Assembly (NCBI GenBank): GCA_001563335.1
Contig: LRSL01000034.1
Location: forward strand, 1-22,632
DNA length: 22,632 nt
Direction of reading: 5' to 3'
Origin: Candidatus Thorarchaeota archaeon SMTZ1-45
Lineage (GTDB): Archaea > Asgardarchaeota > Thorarchaeia > Thorarchaeales > Thorarchaeaceae
The notes under the pieces were generated by a model, which ran no database searches, had not been told where the DNA came from, and saw only the letters and a list, made by a program, of their open reading frames with translations. Below are positions 2,112 through 22,632 of the stretch, piece by piece; position 1 is the stretch's first letter, and every line of letters starts with the position of its first letter. The position numbers and the translations under genes were made by a program.

Positions 2112-2768
2112 ATGTCGTATTCAATTGACAAGATTGAGGCTGCAGTTGCCGAAGCTCGAGCAAAAGGTAATGAGAGAGGCATAAAGTTTGAACAGAGCTT
2201 TGATATGGCTGTCAACTTTAGGAAGAAAGAACTTGATATATCAAAGCCAGAGAACAGGCTAAATCAAGAGTTGGTTCTTCCCAATCCACTAATCCCACCT
2301 CCCAAAGTATGTGCTTTTGGAGATGGTGAGTTTGCTGAGAAGGCAACAGAGGCGGGTGCAGAACGCGTTATCTCAAAGGATGATATCCCAAGTATTGGAG
2401 AAGAGAAGAGAGAACGTAAATCATTAGCAAAGAGCTATGACTTTTTCATTGCAGCTGTAGATGCAATGCCACTGGTTGGACGTTATCTAGGACAAGCTTT
2501 GGGATCACGAGGTAAGATGCCACGACCATTCCCACCACAAGCAGACCTCAATGCCATAATGAACCAATACCATCGGACTGTTCGTGTCAGAATGAGAAAC
2601 ACACCCACATTTCATGTGAAAGTGGGACACATTAAGATGAGTGACAGAGAGATAGCAGACAATATCATTGCAGTTCTCAACTTTGTTGAAAGCAAGGGCT
2701 TTGCTGCAAGAGTAAGTAACATCGTGGTCAAGACAACCATGGGACCAGCAATAGAGCTGTCTGCATAG
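2112..2768 (+). CDS. rpl1: 50S ribosomal protein uL1
   Basis: FEQSFDMAVNF, LGQALGSRGKMP, VKTTMGP motifs; operon position. Confidence 0.96.
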   Translation: MSYSIDKIEAAVAEARAKGNERGIKFEQSFDMAVNFRKKELDISKPENRLNQELVLPNPLIPPPKVCAFGDGEFAEKATEAGAERVISKDDIPSIGEEKRERKSLAKSYDFFIAAVDAMPLVGRYLGQALGSRGKMPRPFPPQADLNAIMNQYHRTVRVRMRNTPTFHVKVGHIKMSDREIADNIIAVLNFVESKGFAARVSNIVVKTTMGPAIELSA

Positions 2769-2783
2769 AGTTGGTGATGAAGG

Positions 2784-3815
2784 ATGTCAGTATATGAAAA
2801 ATCAATTCCACAATGGAAGCAGGATGTTGTCGATAAACTGGCTGCAACTATCAACGATAGTGAGATGATTGGTCTTGTGGGCGTTGAAGGAGTTGGAGCA
2901 AAACAACTTCAAGGAATAAGGGACAGCCTAAGAGGGTCAGCAGTCATTAAAATGGCACGCAACACACTCATGATAAGGGCACTTGAAAAGAGCAGGAAAA
3001 AGGGGATAAAAGACCTGATTGAATATGTCAAAGGACCCGTTGCCTTTTTCTTCAGTAACCAGGATCCCTTTGTTCTTAGTAAGTTTCTGAGAGAGAATAA
3101 AACTGCAGCTCCAGCAAAAGGTGGTCAAGTTGCACCAAATGACATCATCGTTCCTGCAATGAACACAGGTGTAGCACCAGGACCATTCATCAGTGAGCTG
3201 GCTGGTCTCAAAATTCCATCTCGAGTAAAAGGTGGTGTGATTCACATCACTGATGATACAGTTGCTGTAAAGGCTGGAGCAATCATATCAAACGCGATGG
3301 CATTGATGCTCACACGTTTGGGAATTGAGCCAATGGAGCTACAGCTCAAATTGATTGCTGCATACAGCGATGGAGCGGTTCTGACTTCAGGTAGTTTCGA
3401 AATTAATCTTGAAGACCTATTGAGCCAGTTCTTTGCAGGTCATCAGTATGCAATCAATCTCTCGGTGAATACAGGTATAGTAACTGATGTTACTGCACCA
3501 CTCATCATCGCTAAAGCCAACATGGAAGCTAAGAATCTGGCTTTACACATAGGATTCTTTGTACCTGAAATGCTCAATGAGTTCCTGTCAAGGGCCAACT
3601 TGGAAGCATCTGCACTCATTGCGGCTATTGCTGAAAAGGATCCTGAGGCAATACCCTCCGAAATACTTAGTCAGGTTCAATCAGCTGCTGCGGCAGCATC
3701 AACAGCGGCTGCACCCGCCACAGACGCGGCTGAGCAGCAAGAACCGGACACAGCTAAGGATGATGAGGATGAAGAAGAAGAAAAAGTAGCAGGCTTGGGA
3801 AGCCTGTTTGGATGA
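2784..3815 (+). CDS. rpl10: 50S ribosomal protein uL10 (P0)
   Basis: PQWK, MARNTLM, APAKGGQVAPNDIIVPAMNTG, Ala/acidic hinge ending GLGSLFG. Confidence 0.96.
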   Translation: MSVYEKSIPQWKQDVVDKLAATINDSEMIGLVGVEGVGAKQLQGIRDSLRGSAVIKMARNTLMIRALEKSRKKGIKDLIEYVKGPVAFFFSNQDPFVLSKFLRENKTAAPAKGGQVAPNDIIVPAMNTGVAPGPFISELAGLKIPSRVKGGVIHITDDTVAVKAGAIISNAMALMLTRLGIEPMELQLKLIAAYSDGAVLTSGSFEINLEDLLSQFFAGHQYAINLSVNTGIVTDVTAPLIIAKANMEAKNLALHIGFFVPEMLNEFLSRANLEASALIAAIAEKDPEAIPSEILSQVQSAAAAASTAAAPATDAAEQQEPDTAKDDEDEEEEKVAGLGSLFG

Positions 3816-3836
3816 GTAATACAAGAGGTAACAAAA

Positions 3837-4148
3837 ATGGAGTACGTATATGCAGCACTTCTGCTCCACAAGGCGGGTCAGAAACTCACTGCCAAGGCAA
3901 TGGAGGATACTCTAACCGCAGCAGGCGTCACACCCGATAAGGGTAGGGTCAAAGCATTGTTAGCAGCCTTGAAGGATGTTGACATTGATGAGGCTCTTAA
4001 GAGCGCTGCAGCTATGCCAGTAGCAGCTGCCCCTGTAGCTGCTGGTGGTGCAGCAGCCGCTGAGGAGAAGAAGGAAGCAAAGAAAGAAGAGAAAGAAGAA
4101 GAGAAGGAAGAAGAGTTCACTGCTGGACTCGGCAGTCTTTTTGGTTAG
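3837..4148 (+). CDS. rpl12: 50S ribosomal stalk protein P1 (archaeal L12)
   Basis: MEYVYAALLLH start, Ala-rich hinge, acidic tail, GLGSLFG end. Confidence 0.97.
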   Translation: MEYVYAALLLHKAGQKLTAKAMEDTLTAAGVTPDKGRVKALLAALKDVDIDEALKSAAAMPVAAAPVAAGGAAAAEEKKEAKKEEKEEEKEEEFTAGLGSLFG

Positions 4149-4191
4149 AAAGGACAGCACATCCTCTTCACACATTTTCTCAAAAATCAGA

Positions 4192-4236
4192 GGGTGGATG
4201 GGTTGCGAGCCCGTCTGCCCGCTAAATCCTTTTTTT
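4192..4236 (+). terminator. Hairpin plus T-tract after rpl12
   Basis: GGGTGGATGGGTT-GCG-AGCCCGTCTGCCC 13-bp stem with G-U pairs (4192-4220), then T7 at 4230-4236. Confidence 0.65.
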
Positions 4237-4279
4237 CACTTAATGGATTTTCAACAAACCCAAGAACACAAATCCTCGA

Positions 4280-5080
4280 GTGATATCTGAAGAAACTGTG
4301 AAAATCGTTTATCATCCCTTAATGCAGGAACACTATGACAGGACTCCTGCTGGGGCTTCTGGAAGACTTGATACAGCGGTCGAGATTTTGGGAAGTCATC
4401 CTGATTATGAGTTTGTGGAGGCAAGACCAGCGACTGAGGAGGAGATTCTCCGTGCACACGGAACTCGTACACTTGAATCTGTGAAACATGACTATGACTC
4501 TACAAGGCCTGGTCTCCTCTATAAGATGGCAACACTTGCAGCGGGAGGTGCAATCATGACCGCGGAAATTGGGGCTGGTGGAGAGCCAACGTTCGGTCTA
4601 ATTAGACCTCCGGGTCATCATGCATCCTACGATTCATATTGGGGTTTCTGTTATTTCAATAACATTGCAGTTTCGCTACTCCATCTGAGGGCAAAAGGAC
4701 TCATAGAGTCTGCTTACATTCTAGATTTTGATCTTCATACTGGAGATGGGAACATCAACATCTTGGGTGATGATCCCAAGTTTGTCATCCATAACCCAAG
4801 TGGGAATGGTGATGAGCAGTTCTTGAGAGATATTAAGAGGTCATTTGACTCTGCACCGGATGTGGATATCATAGTGGCTTCCGCTGGCTTTGACCAGTAT
4901 GAAGATGATTGGGGAGGCAATATCTCGACCAATGCATTTCATAAGATAGGCAGAATGATGCATGATTTTGCAGAAGAGAGATGTGAGGGGCGTCGATATG
5001 GACTTCTTGAGGGCGGATATAATTTTGAAGATCTGGGAAAGAATGTTCTTGCGTTCTGTGATGGGTTAAGAGGTGTTTGA
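4280..5080 (+). CDS. Histone deacetylase superfamily (Zn-dependent deacetylase)
   Basis: RPPGHHA, GFCYFNN, DFDLHTGDG, ASAGFD, LEGGY motifs. Confidence 0.93.
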   Translation: MISEETVKIVYHPLMQEHYDRTPAGASGRLDTAVEILGSHPDYEFVEARPATEEEILRAHGTRTLESVKHDYDSTRPGLLYKMATLAAGGAIMTAEIGAGGEPTFGLIRPPGHHASYDSYWGFCYFNNIAVSLLHLRAKGLIESAYILDFDLHTGDGNINILGDDPKFVIHNPSGNGDEQFLRDIKRSFDSAPDVDIIVASAGFDQYEDDWGGNISTNAFHKIGRMMHDFAEERCEGRRYGLLEGGYNFEDLGKNVLAFCDGLRGV

Positions 5081-5538
5081 GCATGGTGTATGAATTACTC
5101 AGAGATGCTGTTAGACGTCATCTCGACGAAACAATGCCACTGATAGAGCAGCTCAGGGATGTCGATATTATGAGCAAACCTATCTCAGAGGGAAGGGAAA
5201 TTGGTGAAGTGGTCCTTCATCTCATACGGTCGTTAGAATACTATATGCGAGGGATAGTTGAGTCTTTTTGGGAACCTCTTCCTTACACGCTTGAAACGTA
5301 CAACACTCCGGAAGCGATTATCCAGCTCGCTGAAAATGTCTTCAAAAAAGTGAGCGAATACATGTATTTTGTACGTTTAATTAATCTTAAGGAGATATTT
5401 GACTCATTCAATAGATCAGCAACTTCGGCGGAGATTATTCTTGAGATGCTTGAACATAGTGTTCATCATAGGGGACAGATTACTGTATACTATAGACTCC
5501 TTGGCATCCCTCCAAAGTCCATATCCTACATTATCTGA
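5077..5538 (+). CDS. DinB family metalloprotein (start may be ATG 5083)
   Basis: IGEVVLHL and EHSVHHRGQITVYYRLLG His-triad pattern. Confidence 0.88.
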   Translation: MSMVYELLRDAVRRHLDETMPLIEQLRDVDIMSKPISEGREIGEVVLHLIRSLEYYMRGIVESFWEPLPYTLETYNTPEAIIQLAENVFKKVSEYMYFVRLINLKEIFDSFNRSATSAEIILEMLEHSVHHRGQITVYYRLLGIPPKSISYII

Positions 5539-5570
5539 GCGAAATAGATTTGCAAGATGTTTTCTCACAC

Positions 5571-5888
5571 CTAGGATGGTATGTCTTTGAGGACCTTCTC
5601 TATGGCATTACGATACTTCATGAATGCTTCACGACCTTTTAATGTCAATTTCAGAATGGTATGGGGTTTCTTGCCCAAGAACTCCTTCTGAACCTCAATA
5701 TATTCTGCTTCCTCAAGTTTACTCATGTGCGAAGAGAGATTCCCCCAAGTGAGTCCAAGCTGATTCATGAGAAAAATGAAATCAGCTGACTCCACAACAT
5801 ATAGTTGTGCCATTATTCTCAATCTTGAAGGCTCGTGAATAACCCTGTCAATCTCTGGTCCTGATTCAGGATCATTGCTATTGTTCAT
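5571..5888 (-). CDS. Winged-helix transcriptional regulator (ArsR/MarR-like)
   Basis: IDRVIHEPSRLRIM, LTWGNLSSHMSKLEEAEYIEVQK, LTLKGREAF. Confidence 0.9.
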   Translation of the reverse strand: MNNSNDPESGPEIDRVIHEPSRLRIMAQLYVVESADFIFLMNQLGLTWGNLSSHMSKLEEAEYIEVQKEFLGKKPHTILKLTLKGREAFMKYRNAIEKVLKDIPS

Positions 5889-6504
5889 TGCCCATTTCCT
5901 CCAAATCGAGGATTGGATACTTTCTTACGAAACGAGCCAGACTTGCTATGCCTACTAGGATGAAAAGACCACCAACGATAACCAGGTATACAGTCATTCG
6001 GGATACAGCAGTAGGGGACTCAAGGAGTGTGAAAACCATGCCAAGGATCGAAGAAACAATCCCAATTCCATAGTATCGATTAAGGCCTGATTTTGATACC
6101 AAGTACGCTGATGGTTGAATCAGACCAATCCCAACCAAGACTGGTGCCCCTCGAGCTATAAGATAGAGAATGTCGTTCTCATACACTGTCGAAAAAAAGA
6201 CTGATGCTAATGCTGGAATCATGATTAAAACAGCCAAAATCCATCCATATCCCGAGGGTGTTTCAGCCTCACCACGTAGTTTCACTTTGCCAATTCGAGG
6301 ATAGGTGAACTTCTCCTTTATCTTTTCATTAAACACAGCCTGAAATATGATAAGGATGGCTACAGTACCTACAAAAGCAGTGTGTATCAGTAAGAGAGAT
6401 ATAGCCAGTATCATGAGACCCATCCATAACTCAGTGAAGCCGTCTTGATTTGCAGTTCTGAATGTTGCTTGCTCCAGTTTTACTAAGTCAATTTTTTCAT
6501 TCAT
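5878..6504 (-). CDS. Multi-pass membrane protein, coupled to the HTH regulator
   Basis: About 6 hydrophobic segments, TYPRIG motif, 11-bp overlap with the regulator. Confidence 0.8.
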   Translation of the reverse strand: MNEKIDLVKLEQATFRTANQDGFTELWMGLMILAISLLLIHTAFVGTVAILIIFQAVFNEKIKEKFTYPRIGKVKLRGEAETPSGYGWILAVLIMIPALASVFFSTVYENDILYLIARGAPVLVGIGLIQPSAYLVSKSGLNRYYGIGIVSSILGMVFTLLESPTAVSRMTVYLVIVGGLFILVGIASLARFVRKYPILDLEEMGNEQ

Positions 6505-6520
6505 GGTTTATCAACATCGT

Positions 6521-17582: not shown

Positions 17583-18985
17583 GATTTGGCACCTCCCTGT
17601 GACATGATGTCCTTCACTGCTTGTATAAGCTCGTCAATGGTTTCTTTACTGTGAATTTCAGTCACACAGAACAACATTGATTCTCCAAGAGCAGGATACT
17701 CATCTGTGAGGATTTTCCCACCATGGAATCCTCTCGCGAGAAGACCTTCATGTACGTCTTTAGCAGAAACGTTCTTTTGAAATTGTACAACGAACTCCTT
17801 CCAAATTGACTCCCCAATGGCAGGTGCTTTTACGCCAGGGATCTTGTCAAGCATTTTTGCTGTATAGTTAGCATTGTATGCGATGGTTTCTCCAACTTGT
17901 TTCAAGCCAGCGGGTCCGAGAAGTGACAGGTAGATTGCTGCTGTAACTGCAGCAAGTGCCTGATTTGAACAAATATTACTGGTAGCTTTCTCTCGTCTAA
18001 TATGCTGCTCCCTTGGACTTAGTGTTAATACGTATCCATCTTCATAGGGCTCTTTTTCCGTTTTGGTCATTCCAACTAAGCGTCCAGGCATCTGATAGAT
18101 GAGTTTACGGTCATTTATGCAGCCAAAAATACCTAGCAACGGTCCACCAAACGACATTGGAGAGCCAAGATGCTGACCTTCAGCGATTACAATATCTGCT
18201 CCATAATTACCAGGAGGGCGAATGAGTCCCAAAGAGAGAACATCAACACCAGTCACTAGTAGCGCATCATAGTCGTGCACTATCTTGCTCACCTCATCCA
18301 CCTGACTCTCAATAAATCCTAGATAACTAGGATTTTCAATATAGACGCCTGCTACTTTCTCATTCATCTTAGACTCTAAATCTGAGAGCAACATCAACCC
18401 AGTCTTTTCATCATACTCGATTCTATCTAGCTGAATATCAGCAGGTTCTGTGTAGGTGTAGAGGACTTGATAGTGTTCAGGATTCATTGTTCCTGGGACA
18501 AGAAACTTAGACCGCTGCTTCTTGACACGAGCCGTCATTCTAGCGGCTTCAGCAACAGCAGTGGCCATATCATACATCGAGGAATTCACAACATCAATCT
18601 CTAGAATCTCAGCTAGAAGACTTTGATACTCAAATAAGGTCTGAAGCATACCTTGACTGACTTCAGCTTGATAGCTTGTATATGATGTGAGAAACTCAGC
18701 TCTAGTAGCAAGTGCAGGAACAATAGCTGGGACATAATGCATGCCTATTCCAGACCCAAGAAAGACTCGACCGTTGTCAGCTGGTTTATTCTTACCTGCA
18801 AGCTCTTGTATTCTTCTAGTGACTTCCATCTCACTGTGAGAACGAGGGAGATTCAAATCACGAGGTAGCTTGAACTTCTCGGGTATGTTTGAGAACAGAT
18901 CATCAAGACTTTTCTTACCAATTGACTCTAGCATGTCTTTCTCGGTGGCTTTTGTCATTGGTATCCAGGGATGCTTGTATTCCAT
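17579..18985 (-). CDS. gcvPA: Glycine dehydrogenase (decarboxylating) subunit 1
   Basis: YTSYQAEVSQGMLQ, FGGP, REQHIRREKATSNICSNQAL. Confidence 0.96.
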   Translation of the reverse strand: MEYKHPWIPMTKATEKDMLESIGKKSLDDLFSNIPEKFKLPRDLNLPRSHSEMEVTRRIQELAGKNKPADNGRVFLGSGIGMHYVPAIVPALATRAEFLTSYTSYQAEVSQGMLQTLFEYQSLLAEILEIDVVNSSMYDMATAVAEAARMTARVKKQRSKFLVPGTMNPEHYQVLYTYTEPADIQLDRIEYDEKTGLMLLSDLESKMNEKVAGVYIENPSYLGFIESQVDEVSKIVHDYDALLVTGVDVLSLGLIRPPGNYGADIVIAEGQHLGSPMSFGGPLLGIFGCINDRKLIYQMPGRLVGMTKTEKEPYEDGYVLTLSPREQHIRREKATSNICSNQALAAVTAAIYLSLLGPAGLKQVGETIAYNANYTAKMLDKIPGVKAPAIGESIWKEFVVQFQKNVSAKDVHEGLLARGFHGGKILTDEYPALGESMLFCVTEIHSKETIDELIQAVKDIMSQGGAKS

Positions 18986-19127
18986 TGGAGAATCCTCTAA
19001 ACAACTGGATGCATGAGGCGCAGCTAGTCACCCAAATAGCCTTTCGGGTTGAACACTTTGAGTACAGTTGCTAGAATGATTTTTAACGGCAACTGATTAT
19101 TCGACGCCAGCCACAGATGTGATATGA

Positions 19128-19442
19128 ATGAAACGCTGGTTGATGGACATACTCGCCTGTCCTGTAAGCGACTGTAGAAGTGAACTAGATTTAGAAGTCT
19201 TCACCTCACATGATCTAGAGTCTGAAGGTGAGAATATCGAAGAAATCGACGAAGCGTTAATAACATGTCCAAAATGCGGTAGATGGTATCCTGTCATTGA
19301 TGGGATTGCTTGTATGCTTCCCGACAATCTCAGAATGGATGGTAAACAAAGGATTGAAGAAACAGCGTTTCTTGAGAGATGGAAAGAACGAATATCTTCT
19401 GAAATCATTGAAAATGGAATTCCTTTCAGTTTGAAATCCTAG
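19128..19442 (+). CDS. trm112: Trm112 family methyltransferase activator
   Basis: LMDILACP...C and CPKCGRWYPVIDGIACML. Confidence 0.88.
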   Translation: MKRWLMDILACPVSDCRSELDLEVFTSHDLESEGENIEEIDEALITCPKCGRWYPVIDGIACMLPDNLRMDGKQRIEETAFLERWKERISSEIIENGIPFSLKS

Positions 19443-19466
19443 ATCTGGTTTTTCGGGTTCACCAAT

Positions 19467-19502
19467 AGCCCCGTGGTGTAGCGGTCCAGCATAGCGGGAC
19501 TT
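19467..19502 (+). pseudogene. tRNA-Gln-like 5' half (att-like remnant or split tRNA half)
   Basis: AGCCCCG-TG-GTGTAGCGGTCCAGCAT-AG-CGGGA-CTT: acceptor 5' strand, D arm and anticodon 5' strand; stops in the anticodon loop; no 3' half seen in the window. Confidence 0.8.
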
Positions 19503-19504
19503 CC

Positions 19505-20266
19505 TTATCCTTCTAGTATCCGAATCCAATCCTTGTACACTGTTTTTAATCGAGATATGTCATCATTTGAAAGCGGATTGCAGTGCATTATGGTGTTACG
19601 TAATCGTTCAATAATCTCACCTAGATACAGTTCAATCCAATTTGCATTAGGAATGACTGTTCCCTGAAAATATTGCCAATTGTGTTCCATGATTCGTCTT
19701 AAATCTGACATATCGGTATAGAAAATTGGGTGCGCACCTCTACGACCATGCCATTTGTTTTTTTCGTCATCACTCATACGCTTAATGATTGTTTTAGTTA
19801 CCTTACTTGAAATGTTGGCTAAGTTCCACCAATTTTCACCAAATACATCTGACAGAATCTTTGAGATGAAGTGTCTTATTGAATTCTCTAAGACATAGAA
19901 ATATGGATAAACTTGAGCCATCTTGAGAGCGTCATTCGCAACATTTGAAGGCAGATTAGCTTTGGGGATATCCTTCTCAGAAAAAGAAATGGCCACCTCT
20001 TTTTTCCTACGTTTTTGATTTCGTGGTGTTTCTTTCATTGTTTCAAACGTTCGTTTCTTCTGGGTAATAATTAGACGAATGCGTTCAACATCCTCAAAGC
20101 TTAGATACTTGTAAAGATCCTCACCTTGCTGTGCTGCAAGAATATAGGCTGCATCTTCAGTGGAAATCATATTGTCGAATTCTTTCCTCTTTCGAGCTAT
20201 TCTTTGATAGACTGATTGTCTGCTCCTATTTCCTTGTAGTCTTGTGAAAATCTCTTTATTGATCAA
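19505..20266 (-). CDS. Swt1-like HEPN domain protein (putative RNase)
   Basis: YVLENSIRHFI helix, GENWW, RNTIMH (RX4H) motif; about 100-aa N-terminal domain not recognised. Confidence 0.85.
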   Translation of the reverse strand: MINKEIFTRLQGNRSRQSVYQRIARKRKEFDNMISTEDAAYILAAQQGEDLYKYLSFEDVERIRLIITQKKRTFETMKETPRNQKRRKKEVAISFSEKDIPKANLPSNVANDALKMAQVYPYFYVLENSIRHFISKILSDVFGENWWNLANISSKVTKTIIKRMSDDEKNKWHGRRGAHPIFYTDMSDLRRIMEHNWQYFQGTVIPNANWIELYLGEIIERLRNTIMHCNPLSNDDISRLKTVYKDWIRILEG

Positions 20267-20282
20267 GCATCTAGCAGCTCCA

Positions 20283-20552
20283 CTAATGTTTTGTCTTTCC
20301 TTCAGCTCTACTCTTCGCTTTCGTTACTGTTCCAAGATGTACTCCTAGAATCATTGAAACATCCTTTGGTTTGAGCCCCAAATTCAATAGTGTTAATGAT
20401 TTATCCTTCACTTTTTCCATACCACTTATTGCTACGTGAGCTAATAGGCGATTTGTGAGATCAATTCTTTCACTAGCTTGGTTAATTGCAGCAATAACTT
20501 CTTTCATCATCTCATTCTGTTTTGCAATCTCTTTCAGCCAATCTTCAGCCAT
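20283..20552 (-). CDS. Small coiled-coil plus HTH protein
   Basis: LGLKPKDVSMILGVHLGTV HTH pattern; N-terminal amphipathic helix. Confidence 0.75.
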   Translation of the reverse strand: MAEDWLKEIAKQNEMMKEVIAAINQASERIDLTNRLLAHVAISGMEKVKDKSLTLLNLGLKPKDVSMILGVHLGTVTKAKSRAEGKTKH

Positions 20553-20870
20553 TTATAATCCCTCTAATGCAGGCGATATTGTTACTATTACCTCTTTACC
20601 AATTCTTTGACCTACTATTAATCCCTGGAATCGGAGTTCAGCTATGCGTCGTTTTACAGTCATTTCAGAAACATTAGTTGCTTGAGCAACTGCTGATACA
20701 ACTTCACCATAGGTTTTACCTTTGGCATGTGAAACAATCTCTCTAGTAACTAAATCAGTATCAGCTAATTCTTTTGTTTTCAATAATGTTTCATAATATA
20801 CTAACCTTAGAATATTGATGATTATGTCTAGCTTGTTTGAAATATCGTCCAGTACTTGTTTTTCAGTCAC
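20553..20870 (-). CDS. Small coiled-coil plus winged-HTH protein
   Basis: TYGEVVSAVAQATNVSEMTVKRRIAELRFQGLI plus wing hairpin. Confidence 0.8.
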   Translation of the reverse strand: MTEKQVLDDISNKLDIIINILRLVYYETLLKTKELADTDLVTREIVSHAKGKTYGEVVSAVAQATNVSEMTVKRRIAELRFQGLIVGQRIGKEVIVTISPALEGL

Positions 20871-21177
20871 TTGAAATCCACTCCTGAGGAATATAATCGA
20901 TTTTTCTTCGAGGATAGCCTCTTCTTTTGGTGTCTATGAGATTGTGTCCTGATAGCTGTTTTAGAAATCGTTGAACAGATCTCTGAGTGATTTTTAATTT
21001 GTCCGCTATTTCCGCTGTAGTCTTGGCCCCGTCGAGTAGTATCCAAATCTGTTTTCTTTCGGTTGTTGAAGCAACCTCACTCAAGTATATCTTGAATCGA
21101 TCTTCAACCATGAATTCAAGTGTTCTACGTATTCTGACTAATTCGTCAAGAATCGCATCTATCTTGTTTTCAGACAT
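20863..21177 (-). CDS. Small coiled-coil plus winged-HTH protein
   Basis: KTTAEIADKLKITQRSVQRFLKQLSGHNLI. Confidence 0.82.
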   Translation of the reverse strand: MSENKIDAILDELVRIRRTLEFMVEDRFKIYLSEVASTTERKQIWILLDGAKTTAEIADKLKITQRSVQRFLKQLSGHNLIDTKRRGYPRRKIDYIPQEWISSD

Positions 21178-21334
21178 AAGTACTCACTTGTGGTTATTAT
21201 TAGGAACATATGCGACATTATTATTTATAAAGGCGACGCCATTTAAGTGTTACTAATTAGTTTTGATTTGAGAGAAATAAACGTCTTGATTGAGAATGGA
21301 TGAGACCAAAACCCGCTAAGACCTGATTCTTCAT

Positions 21335-22632
21335 TCAGGAGTGAGTGAACTCCGAAAGAAACTTCTGTGTTTCACCCTGCTCACGACTACTGTCACCAGT
21401 TTCCAGATGACCGGAATCATCTGAAACGACGTGTGCTTTGTCCAAGATCATAGGAAAATCGTTCCTCCCTTTGCAACTGGTTTCTGTCCGCTGCGTACTT
21501 CCAAGACTACCAGTCATCTCGGACACAGACGGTTCTTCCACAGTACTTGCCACGGCTGGGTCTTCAGTGTTCACACACATCTCAAGAGATGTCTGTTTAT
21601 AACACTCAGCCACGGACTCTCCCACTAAGGTTGGCATCCTCTGAGAGAGTGAGGACTTCCTCTTAGAGCGTTTGCCCCTTGAGGTCTTCGGGATGGTCTT
21701 CTCACTAGGGAGAAGCCAAACTCCTAGTCCAGTCTTCTCATCTCTAAGTGAAGGGATGAGCTTGATAACACGCCGACCGATGTTTATGGCTCCATTCAGG
21801 TCAGCGTTAGCACGGAACCCACAGGTTCCACAGACGAAGAGGTTCTGTTTTGGTCGGTACCCTTTACTTCCACACTTATGACATTTTATTGAAGTCCATG
21901 CTTCATTTACTGCAAAGAACTTCGTGGAATCAAAGCCGAGGATTGAAAGCTTGTGTTGAAGGTAATCTCTCACCCTCGCAAATGACCAGCGATGAACCAT
22001 TCCTCGAAACTTTCGACCTCTAAAGTTCTCCTTTCTTGCGGTTCCCCGGATGCCCTTAAGTTGACCGATAACAATGTGGAGGTCATACTTCTCAATTAAA
22101 TCGAAGATATGTTCCGCAACATCCTTAGCGAGTTTTCGGTCATATTCTTGGCTAAGCCTTGCGCGTTTCTTACCAAGTTCTCTCAGTCGTTTTGTGACTT
22201 GGGTTGAGTCCTTACTCTGGGCAAGCAGTAACTCCTTCTTTTGTTGAAGAGAAGCTATGATGCTGTCGTAGTGTTCCATTCGTTTCAATTTGTCCTGTTG
22301 CTTCCAATAGCGAACATGCTTGTATCCCTGTTTGGTCAATAAGACAGTACACGCAGCCTTCTCAATTCCCAGATCTATTCCCATAGCCGCTGGTGGTAGA
22401 CTCGATGTGTCAACTGATTCAGTATCAATTGTCACTGTGAATATTGCCCACCACTTTCTTTGTCTATCCTTGAAGAGTCTGACTGTCTTCAGCTTTCCTT
22501 CGTTCAATCTCTTGAGATGATATGATGAGGGAGAGAGAGGTATCAGTAGTCGGTCATGGTTGAACCTCCTTTCTCTGGTTGAGTCAACCGAATAACGAAG
22601 GTTCAACCAGTGTTTGATTTCCTTCACAGGAG
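21335..22632 (-). CDS. tnpB: TnpB family RNA-guided endonuclease (IS200/IS605-IS607), 5'-truncated by window edge
   Basis: RuvC-I MGIDLG, zinc ribbon CHKC...CGTC, RuvC-III NADLNGAINI; frame open to the window end. Confidence 0.92.
   Translation of the reverse strand, partial: PVKEIKHWLNLRYSVDSTRERRFNHDRLLIPLSPSSYHLKRLNEGKLKTVRLFKDRQRKWWAIFTVTIDTESVDTSSLPPAAMGIDLGIEKAACTVLLTKQGYKHVRYWKQQDKLKRMEHYDSIIASLQQKKELLLAQSKDSTQVTKRLRELGKKRARLSQEYDRKLAKDVAEHIFDLIEKYDLHIVIGQLKGIRGTARKENFRGRKFRGMVHRWSFARVRDYLQHKLSILGFDSTKFFAVNEAWTSIKCHKCGSKGYRPKQNLFVCGTCGFRANADLNGAINIGRRVIKLIPSLRDEKTGLGVWLLPSEKTIPKTSRGKRSKRKSSLSQRMPTLVGESVAECYKQTSLEMCVNTEDPAVASTVEEPSVSEMTGSLGSTQRTETSCKGRNDFPMILDKAHVVSDDSGHLETGDSSREQGETQKFLSEFTHS

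Follow-up and report, generated by a model that had tools for sequence, protein, structure and literature searches.

Four genes packed on the minus strand of a stretch of the Candidatus Thorarchaeota archaeon SMTZ1-45 genome, 22,632 nucleotides long and called the window throughout, form a cassette in which three small helix-turn-helix (HTH) proteins, here named A, B and C, precede a predicted Swt1-like HEPN ribonuclease (RNase), named D. The cassette is real and recurring: each of its genes has relatives elsewhere, marking all four as real genes, and related HTH genes adjoin related HEPN genes in other archaea. With a probability of about 45%, i.e., slightly short of even odds, we read it as a horizontally moving toxin-antitoxin or abortive-infection module, in which the HTH proteins would act as repressors of the operon and hold the enzyme in check.

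The ORF (open reading frame) listing and the strand sequence place the following genes between positions 19505 and 21177.

Positions 20863-21177, minus strand: gene A, ATG start, 104 amino acids (aa); N-terminal helix and winged HTH (wHTH), ArsR/SmtB-like.
Positions 20553-20870, minus strand: gene B, GTG start, 105 aa; N-terminal helix and wHTH.
Positions 20283-20552, minus strand: gene C, ATG start, 89 aa; long helix (residues 2-41) and three-helix HTH resembling LuxR and sigma region 4.
Positions 19505-20266, minus strand: gene D, TTG start, 253 aa; DUF2240/AROD-like N-terminal domain and Swt1-like HEPN domain.

Genes A and B share 8 bp (20863-20870), the TAA of B abuts the ATG of C, and D follows C after a gap of 16 nt, which is the coupled, co-directional arrangement described by an initial reading of the letters and ORFs made with no database search (hereafter the sequence-only reading). 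Co-directional, small, coupled genes with predicted DNA-binding proteins encoded 5' of a predicted toxin constitute the layout of type II toxin-antitoxin systems. The AT-richness reported by the same reading was confirmed by GC fractions of 0.387, 0.340, 0.370 and 0.369 for genes A to D, compared to 0.435 for the whole window and 0.462 for the adjoining TnpB gene; the base composition of the cassette is foreign to the window. Upstream of gene A lies one candidate control region.

Positions 21196-21237, minus strand: putative promoter/operator, with a TATA-like box in a 21-nt tandem direct repeat.

The archaeal TATA-like box, read from the sequence at 21222-21231, stands approximately 50 nt upstream of the ATG of gene A and is overlapped by the repeat, whose two copies (21196-21216 and 21217-21237) share 71% identity. 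Because short repeats of two copies often arise by chance, this one may be an operator or a coincidence. Scans for bacterial-type promoters (11 sites versus 6.9 ± 2.5 expected) and terminators (1 site versus 1.4 expected) are ill-suited to archaea.

The effector, D, is built from two domains.

Positions 19508-19948, minus strand: D residues 107-253, Swt1-like HEPN domain (Pfam PF18731, PADLOC PDC-M34B, AF2).
Positions 20042-20266, minus strand: D residues 1-75, helical DUF2240/AROD-like domain (weak but concordant sequence and fold leads).

The D family was collected by searching 5.8 billion proteins with a word index: 24 proteins at E ≤ 1e-3, D itself included, among 210 candidates. D scores 51.9 bits (cut-off 27.5, E 1.1e-13) with Pfam HEPN_Swt1 (PF18731) over residues 123-249, and the same Pfam family is matched by 24/24 members. 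The R-x4-H motif, R223-N-T-I-M-H228, is encoded at 19583-19600; conservation of R223 and H228 reaches at least 90% among the 24 aligned members, and both are invariant in 6/6 when the window protein is set beside the five locus proteins described below. An intact R-x4-H in a Swt1-like HEPN as the last gene, one of the claims of the sequence-only reading, is supported. The two-domain build is conserved as well, since 20 of the 23 other members, each of 241-274 aa except P0003 (417 aa), cover at least 91% of D, and the TTG start is credible because relatives share identical N-terminal first residues (alignment A1). In the AF2 model (pLDDT 89.5) D is all helical, with a helical N-domain (residues 1-75) and a helical C-domain joined by a K/R-rich, low-confidence linker (residues 76-106; pLDDT below 50 at 76-83). 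Among PHROGs, D matched phrog_24039 at 3.2e-5, a family of unknown function; the other matches were weak and of generic HTH type. By tblastn, D had no match in phage records and one distant match, cyanobacterial, among plasmids. Other domains are swapped around the HEPN core in relatives: in the HEPN protein of locus L004 the DUF2240-like domain is replaced by an N-terminal wHTH, and the HEPN proteins of locus L003 and P0003 bear an extra C-terminal extension of approximately 150 residues, for which P0003 gave no Pfam match at E ≤ 0.01.

The N-domain of D, overlooked by the sequence-only reading, which had listed the HEPN part correctly, resembles the DUF2240/AROD bundle otherwise known at the N terminus of archaeal RPA. 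The leads are weak but concordant. Pfam DUF2240 (PF09999) is matched by 10/24 family members, always over residues ~5-58 (best 9.4e-5), and a single member, P0007, reaches the gathering score (22.5 bits versus 22.3), with D itself giving no match at E ≤ 1. The D-family profile against chain 8aa9 of Rpa1 gave E 0.07, and Foldseek aligned the N-domain with the same chain over 53 columns (rmsd 2.1, probability 0.94 but E 2.3); the structural neighbors of residues 1-76 in the ESM Atlas were N termini of archaeal RPA-like OB proteins, DUF2240 proteins and Hypoth_Ymh proteins. Like the AROD/DUF2240 of archaeal Rpa1, the domain is a three-helix N-terminal bundle of ~55-60 residues. It differs in being fused to HEPN rather than to OB folds, and in charge: the AROD of Rpa1 is acidic, whereas the D domain is basic (pI 9.6; 15 K+R versus 11 D+E), so neither an acidic surface nor an Rpa1-like location was found. 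The notion that the N-domain belongs with A, B and C as another paralogue was rejected (hhalign probability ≤ 0.5%).

We turn now to the small proteins, of which A and B clearly resemble, on profile comparison, solved ArsR/SmtB repressors. For gene A, 26 matches to HTH families fall below threshold, each over residues ~42-94 (best HTH_29, 8.7e-6), and A matches the NCBIfam ArsR/SmtB family NF033788 at 1.1e-5 with 25.1 bits; gene B reaches 16.7 bits with the same family, whose cut-off is 55. Throughout A, B and C the sub-threshold HTH matches agree in position. A profile of six A-type sequences aligned with CadC (1u2w) at E 1.4e-5, nearly full-length and with the N-terminal helix included, and the B-type profile aligned with SmtB (1r1t) at E 0.0021. 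For C, the AF2 model (pLDDT 92.7) comprises one helix at residues 2-41 followed by three short helices; its Foldseek top list is uniformly of sigma-region-4/LuxR/resolvase HTH proteins, and its ESM Atlas neighbors are LuxR/Sigma70_r4_2-like. The HTH assigned earlier to each protein thus gains from concordant positions, from the CadC and SmtB profiles and from the model and fold list of C, although every Pfam and NCBIfam match stays below its cut-off. Of the amphipathic or coiled-coil label attached to the N-terminal regions, the helices stand and the amphipathicity is weakly supported: among 500 shuffles of the first 40 residues, the observed hydrophobic moment was reached by 88 for A, 15 for B and 50 for C. 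For A and B, helix plus HTH is the ordinary layout of ArsR/SmtB repressors, with no special coiled coil.

Relatives of the three proteins differ in number. For A, the protein search gave P0026 (66% identity) as the sole non-self relative, beside the gene at 3970-4293 of locus L002 (36% identity, E 1e-19), and tblastn against plasmids gave no match. The B-type family counts 24 proteins at E ≤ 1e-3, the window and L002 members included; in alignment A6, from which P0058 (184 aa) was omitted, mean column identity is 65%, and these ~105-aa proteins share a near-invariant N-terminal helix motif and wing, with window B a divergent member at ~35% identity. Their sources annotate them solely as "hypothetical" or "biotin operon repressor." With a typical B-type protein as the tblastn query, annotated ArsR/SmtB regulators were matched on 4 plasmids, and the B-type P0041 gave no match in phages. 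C has 8 relatives among 1.84 billion representatives, and its alignment excludes P0028, P0031 and P0033 (598-6596 aa).

The suggestion that the three small proteins are diverged paralogues was borne out, most firmly for the pairs that include A. The A-type and B-type profiles aligned by hhalign with a probability of 91.3% (E 9.4e-7, 85 columns) and the A-type and C-type profiles with 92.2% (E 6e-7, 64 columns); the B-C alignment was weaker (43.6%, E 2.4e-4, 63 columns). Each alignment spans the N-terminal helix plus the HTH, and four controls, using an unrelated wHTH protein encoded at window positions 5571-5888 and the HEPN family, gave probabilities ≤ 1.1% and E ≥ 0.05. A tree of 27 small proteins, taking in 6 of the 22 B-type relatives, set the C-type group apart from an A+B group (support 94/81) and resolved two A subclades. 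These profile alignments support A as a distant paralogue of B and of C.

A scan of genome contigs for relatives of D yielded four archaeal loci, of which three, all thaumarchaeal, have visible flanks.

L002 (Nitrosopumilus chromosome), all on one strand: A-like, B-like, two extra A-like, C-like, HEPN.
L001 (soil thaumarchaeal contig), 5' of HEPN: a weakly C-like gene (C-type HMM 5e-4) and an A-like gene.
L001, 3' of HEPN: a C-like gene and a wHTH gene, running into a 919-aa helicase gene.
L004 (soil thaumarchaeal contig): three small genes 5' of HEPN, two of them C-like.
L003 (Thorarchaeota metagenome-assembled genome), positions 2-751: contig ends inside the HEPN gene, uninformative upstream.

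Same-strand A-, B- or C-type genes adjoin HEPN in 3/3 informative loci, and L002 is collinear with the window. Its A-like, B-like and C-like genes match at 36% identity (1e-19), 40% (9e-14) and 34% (1e-3), respectively, and its junctions include an 11-bp overlap at one extreme and a 40-nt gap at the other. When the A-, B- and C-type HMMs were run on the window and loci L001 to L005 (~71 kb; 301 ORFs with 50 aa or more), they matched HEPN-adjacent ORFs alone. The sequence-only reading had named conserved gene order elsewhere as a test, with failure of the genes to co-occur counting against it; they do co-occur, at every informative locus, and that objection therefore falls. C-like genes adjoin HEPN in L001, L002 and L004. 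In L004, the HEPN protein itself (5662-6507) starts with a wHTH that shows weak similarity to the A type (hmmsearch 4e-4; hhalign probability 33.6%, E 4.4e-4), a possible fusion link, judging from these profile matches, between an A-like wHTH and HEPN. P0026, the relative of A, and P0003, a relative of D, each lie on a contig of 7123 bp, which is suggestive only. The L001 helicase (3623-6382; DEAD, Helicase_C and HhH domains) follows the HEPN and HTH genes on the same strand after a 15-nt gap and matches PADLOC HamB at 1e-44 and PDC-M23B at 2e-46, so it may belong to a larger composite defense locus. An ORF at 3230-4384 of L004 was considered as an integrase and dropped, having no Pfam or PADLOC match.

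How the cassette would work as a mobile toxin-antitoxin or abortive-infection module can be proposed as follows, with RNase activity, toxicity, repression, contact, neutralization and trigger all being predictions, set on the observed gene layout, domain families, conserved catalytic motif, paralogy, recurring neighborhood and foreign composition. By analogy with other HEPN enzymes, D would form a dimer that cuts RNA through its R-x4-H site and arrests growth. A, B and C would bind the promoter region and repress the operon, and at least one HTH protein, most likely of the C type, would keep the RNase inactive; the C type is favored here because it adjoins HEPN in every locus. Infection, or loss of the element, would remove or titrate this restrainer and so release the RNase, and the DUF2240/AROD-like bundle of D could serve as a docking or sensing surface. 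The low GC and the mobile-element neighbors, TnpB in the window and Cas1 in L002, fit a mobile module.

Several observations weigh against this proposal. Contact between D and any of the HTH proteins is conjectural, as is the hetero-oligomeric DNA-sensing or antitoxin complex proposed by the sequence-only reading; a prediction of the D-C complex from alignments A1 and A5 scored 0.00 against a mark of 0.32 and, having been run without controls, speaks neither for nor against binding. No HTH match of A, B or C exceeds a curated Pfam or NCBIfam cut-off, and Foldseek returned 0 PDB matches at E ≤ 1e-3 for C and 0 PDB and 0 BFVD matches at that threshold for D, so that the HEPN assignment of D rests on its sequence profiles. 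Recurrence has a narrow basis of three informative loci, all thaumarchaeal, and L005, a cyanobacterial plasmid encoding a distant HEPN relative, has no A-, B- or C-type neighbor (0/1). Archaeal mobile elements commonly carry small HTH genes, and such genes could regulate the element and have nothing to do with the RNase. Finally, the contigs of the 22 other B-type proteins match no D-family contig in size save L002; because the two sets coincide only there, B-type genes may also occur without this HEPN.

The last two points lead to the main rival, to which we assign an appreciable but clearly smaller likelihood: the HTH genes would be regulators of the mobile element, acting in maintenance or copy control, and the HEPN gene a stand-alone cargo, such as an addiction or exclusion factor, forming no physical complex with them and controlled by transcription alone or not at all. 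Differences between loci in how many HTH genes there are and how they are arranged (three in the window, five in L002, two on each side of HEPN in L001, three in L004) are consistent with such a division, as are the ordinary ArsR/SmtB appearance of A and B and the many contigs with B-type proteins that are not shared with the D family. According to Krupovic et al. 2019 (PMC6563490), the casposon NitEve-C1 has Cas1 directly before an arCOG06139 HEPN protein, possibly but not necessarily of the D family, with no HTH gene between. Against independent cargo, the collinear order A-B-...-C-HEPN is kept in two distant archaea in different element contexts (TnpB versus Cas1), the cassette genes are translationally coupled, A-, B- and C-type genes occur nowhere else in the ~71 kb examined, and L004 offers a possible fusion of an A-like wHTH to HEPN.

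We consider it improbable that the cassette represents nothing more than the PADLOC candidate PDC-M34. Component B of that candidate is present by profile: D matches the three PDC-M34B profiles at 7e-45 (residues 80-250), 2.4e-28 and 2.4e-24, and the HEPN proteins of L001, L002, L004 and L005 also match all three (best values, D included, 7e-45 to 6e-55). Because of this match, the effector family counts as already catalogued among defense candidates. The PADLOC check proposed by the sequence-only reading thus gave a catalogued effector family but no catalogued partner, as PDC-M34A was matched neither by A, B or C (E ≤ 1) nor by any of 12 small neighbors in L001, L002 and L004 (E ≤ 0.01) or of 3 neighbors in L005 (E ≤ 1e-3). 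Moreover, the PDC-M34B profiles (147-192 positions) cover the HEPN part alone and leave the DUF2240-like N-domain of D outside. Since the required A component was not found, we do not file the cassette as PDC-M34. Payne et al. (bioRxiv 10.1101/2024.01.29.577857), in the portion available to us, describe PDCs as lying within BREX, DISARM or type I restriction-modification (RM) systems. PDC systems are embedding-based predictions, most of them still candidates in the text consulted.

Also unlikely is the view that D, instead of being a toxin, is a nuclease linked to replication or RNA processing and brought to RPA or another OB-fold protein by the AROD-like domain, with gene-specific regulation left to the HTH proteins. 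The N-domain of D invites this view, in that the AROD of Pyrococcus RPA, equated with DUF2240, binds OB folds and not DNA in the sections consulted of Madru et al. 2023 (PMC10122647). The opposite charge of the D domain and the acidic AROD argues otherwise, however, and the patchy distribution, foreign composition and mobile neighbors speak against a housekeeping role, as does the cataloguing of the HEPN family from defense contexts. We give similarly little credence to an immune sensor in which the RNase would dock through its AROD domain on OB-fold single-stranded DNA-binding proteins of host or invader and thereby read foreign replication, with a variable set of paralogous HTH proteins, as a DNA-bound hetero-oligomer, holding it off until that signal.

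In some three-component toxin-antitoxin systems, such as omega-epsilon-zeta and PaaR2-PaaA2-ParE2, DNA binding falls to a separate regulator. Read as a toxin-antitoxin module, the cassette would work most like these: they too have one toxin and more than one small upstream protein, with repression and neutralization divided between them. They differ from it in toxin fold, and the cassette partners are mutual paralogues, 2 to 5 in number, all with an HTH. Among HEPN toxins, in HEPN-MNT (HepT/MntA) pairs an upstream gene encodes the protein that keeps the HEPN RNase toxin in check (as cited in PMC12988326). The cassette is alike in pairing an HEPN protein, here a predicted toxin, with upstream partner genes. 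Its HEPN belongs to another family, however, and neutralization by AMPylation cannot apply; because no nucleotidyltransferase domain was found in A, B or C with Pfam or NCBIfam, it is not HEPN-MNT. The Swt1/Abi2 clade of HEPN proteins has been recorded in defense and mobile contexts and in wHTH fusions (Anantharaman et al. 2013, PMC3710099, in the parts available), and D agrees with it in being a prokaryotic Swt1-like HEPN with an intact catalytic motif. The architectures listed in those parts are AAA+ fusions, transmembrane fusions and giant helicase proteins, and a DUF2240-like N-domain with a paralogous HTH array is not among them.

No description of the A-B-C-HEPN gene set was found in the literature searched, with subscription journals and bioRxiv supplements outside reach; the same search found nothing naming PDC-M34 or arCOG06139, and DUF2240 solely in work on RPA. 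Relative to the papers searched, the array of 2 to 5 paralogous HTH partners and a DUF2240/AROD-like domain outside RPA are new. The defense and toxin-antitoxin repertoires of archaea are thinly charted, and the cassette offers a compact, testable module of one predicted RNase and three partners. Its occurrence on different mobile elements, with TnpB here and casposon-type Cas1 in Nitrosopumilus, bears on how cargo spreads in Thaumarchaeota. Should the partners turn out to do no more than regulate the element, what is left is a stand-alone HEPN cargo gene of an ordinary kind.

Housekeeping genes mark the window as archaeal chromosome: among them are those for Spt5 (NGN and KOW), for ribosomal proteins L11, L1 and L10 and the P-stalk protein, and for both glycine-cleavage P-protein subunits. 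Nearest to the cassette are the following features.

Positions 19128-19442, plus strand: Trm112-like zinc-ribbon gene, converging on the cassette downstream of D.
Positions 19468-19504, plus strand: possible island edge, a 37-nt string like a tRNA 5' half (Gly-UCC-like), read by eye and ending at the D stop.
Positions 21335 to beyond 22632, minus strand: TnpB-family RNA-guided endonuclease gene (NF040570, 6.8e-33), N terminus beyond the window end.

The att-like edge that the sequence-only reading saw beside the cassette was not confirmed. ARAGORN called no tRNA near the cassette, Rfam gave no noncoding RNA family in 18900-22632, and flanking direct repeats were none of them convincing (the best, of 12-18 nt at 82-92% identity, were scattered). 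The sole trace is the 37-nt string, which, aligned to the tRNA-Thr of the window, can be read as an acceptor strand, a D-arm with GG, an anticodon-stem strand and a loop starting C-U-U-C-C. It was called by neither ARAGORN nor Rfam (the tRNA model was silent on 19440-19560 and 19455-19505), and a search of the window for a tRNA 3' half gave 2 matches versus 1.44 expected. If there is an island, its far end falls beyond the window.

In L002, a Cas1 gene (2299-3531; Pfam 6e-59) lies directly 5' of the five HTH genes and HEPN. No CRISPR context is in view around it, a casposon-like setting that recalls thaumarchaeal family 1 casposons; PolB and terminal repeats do not fall within the stretch covered. 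A minus-strand ORF at 19257-19529, probably spurious, overlaps the Trm112-like gene and the D stop. The TnpB gene of the window continues for approximately 140 residues past its Cas12f-like TNB domain and, with a GC of 0.46, is unlike the cassette in composition; the element RNA and right end may lie in the 157 nt that separate its stop from gene A.

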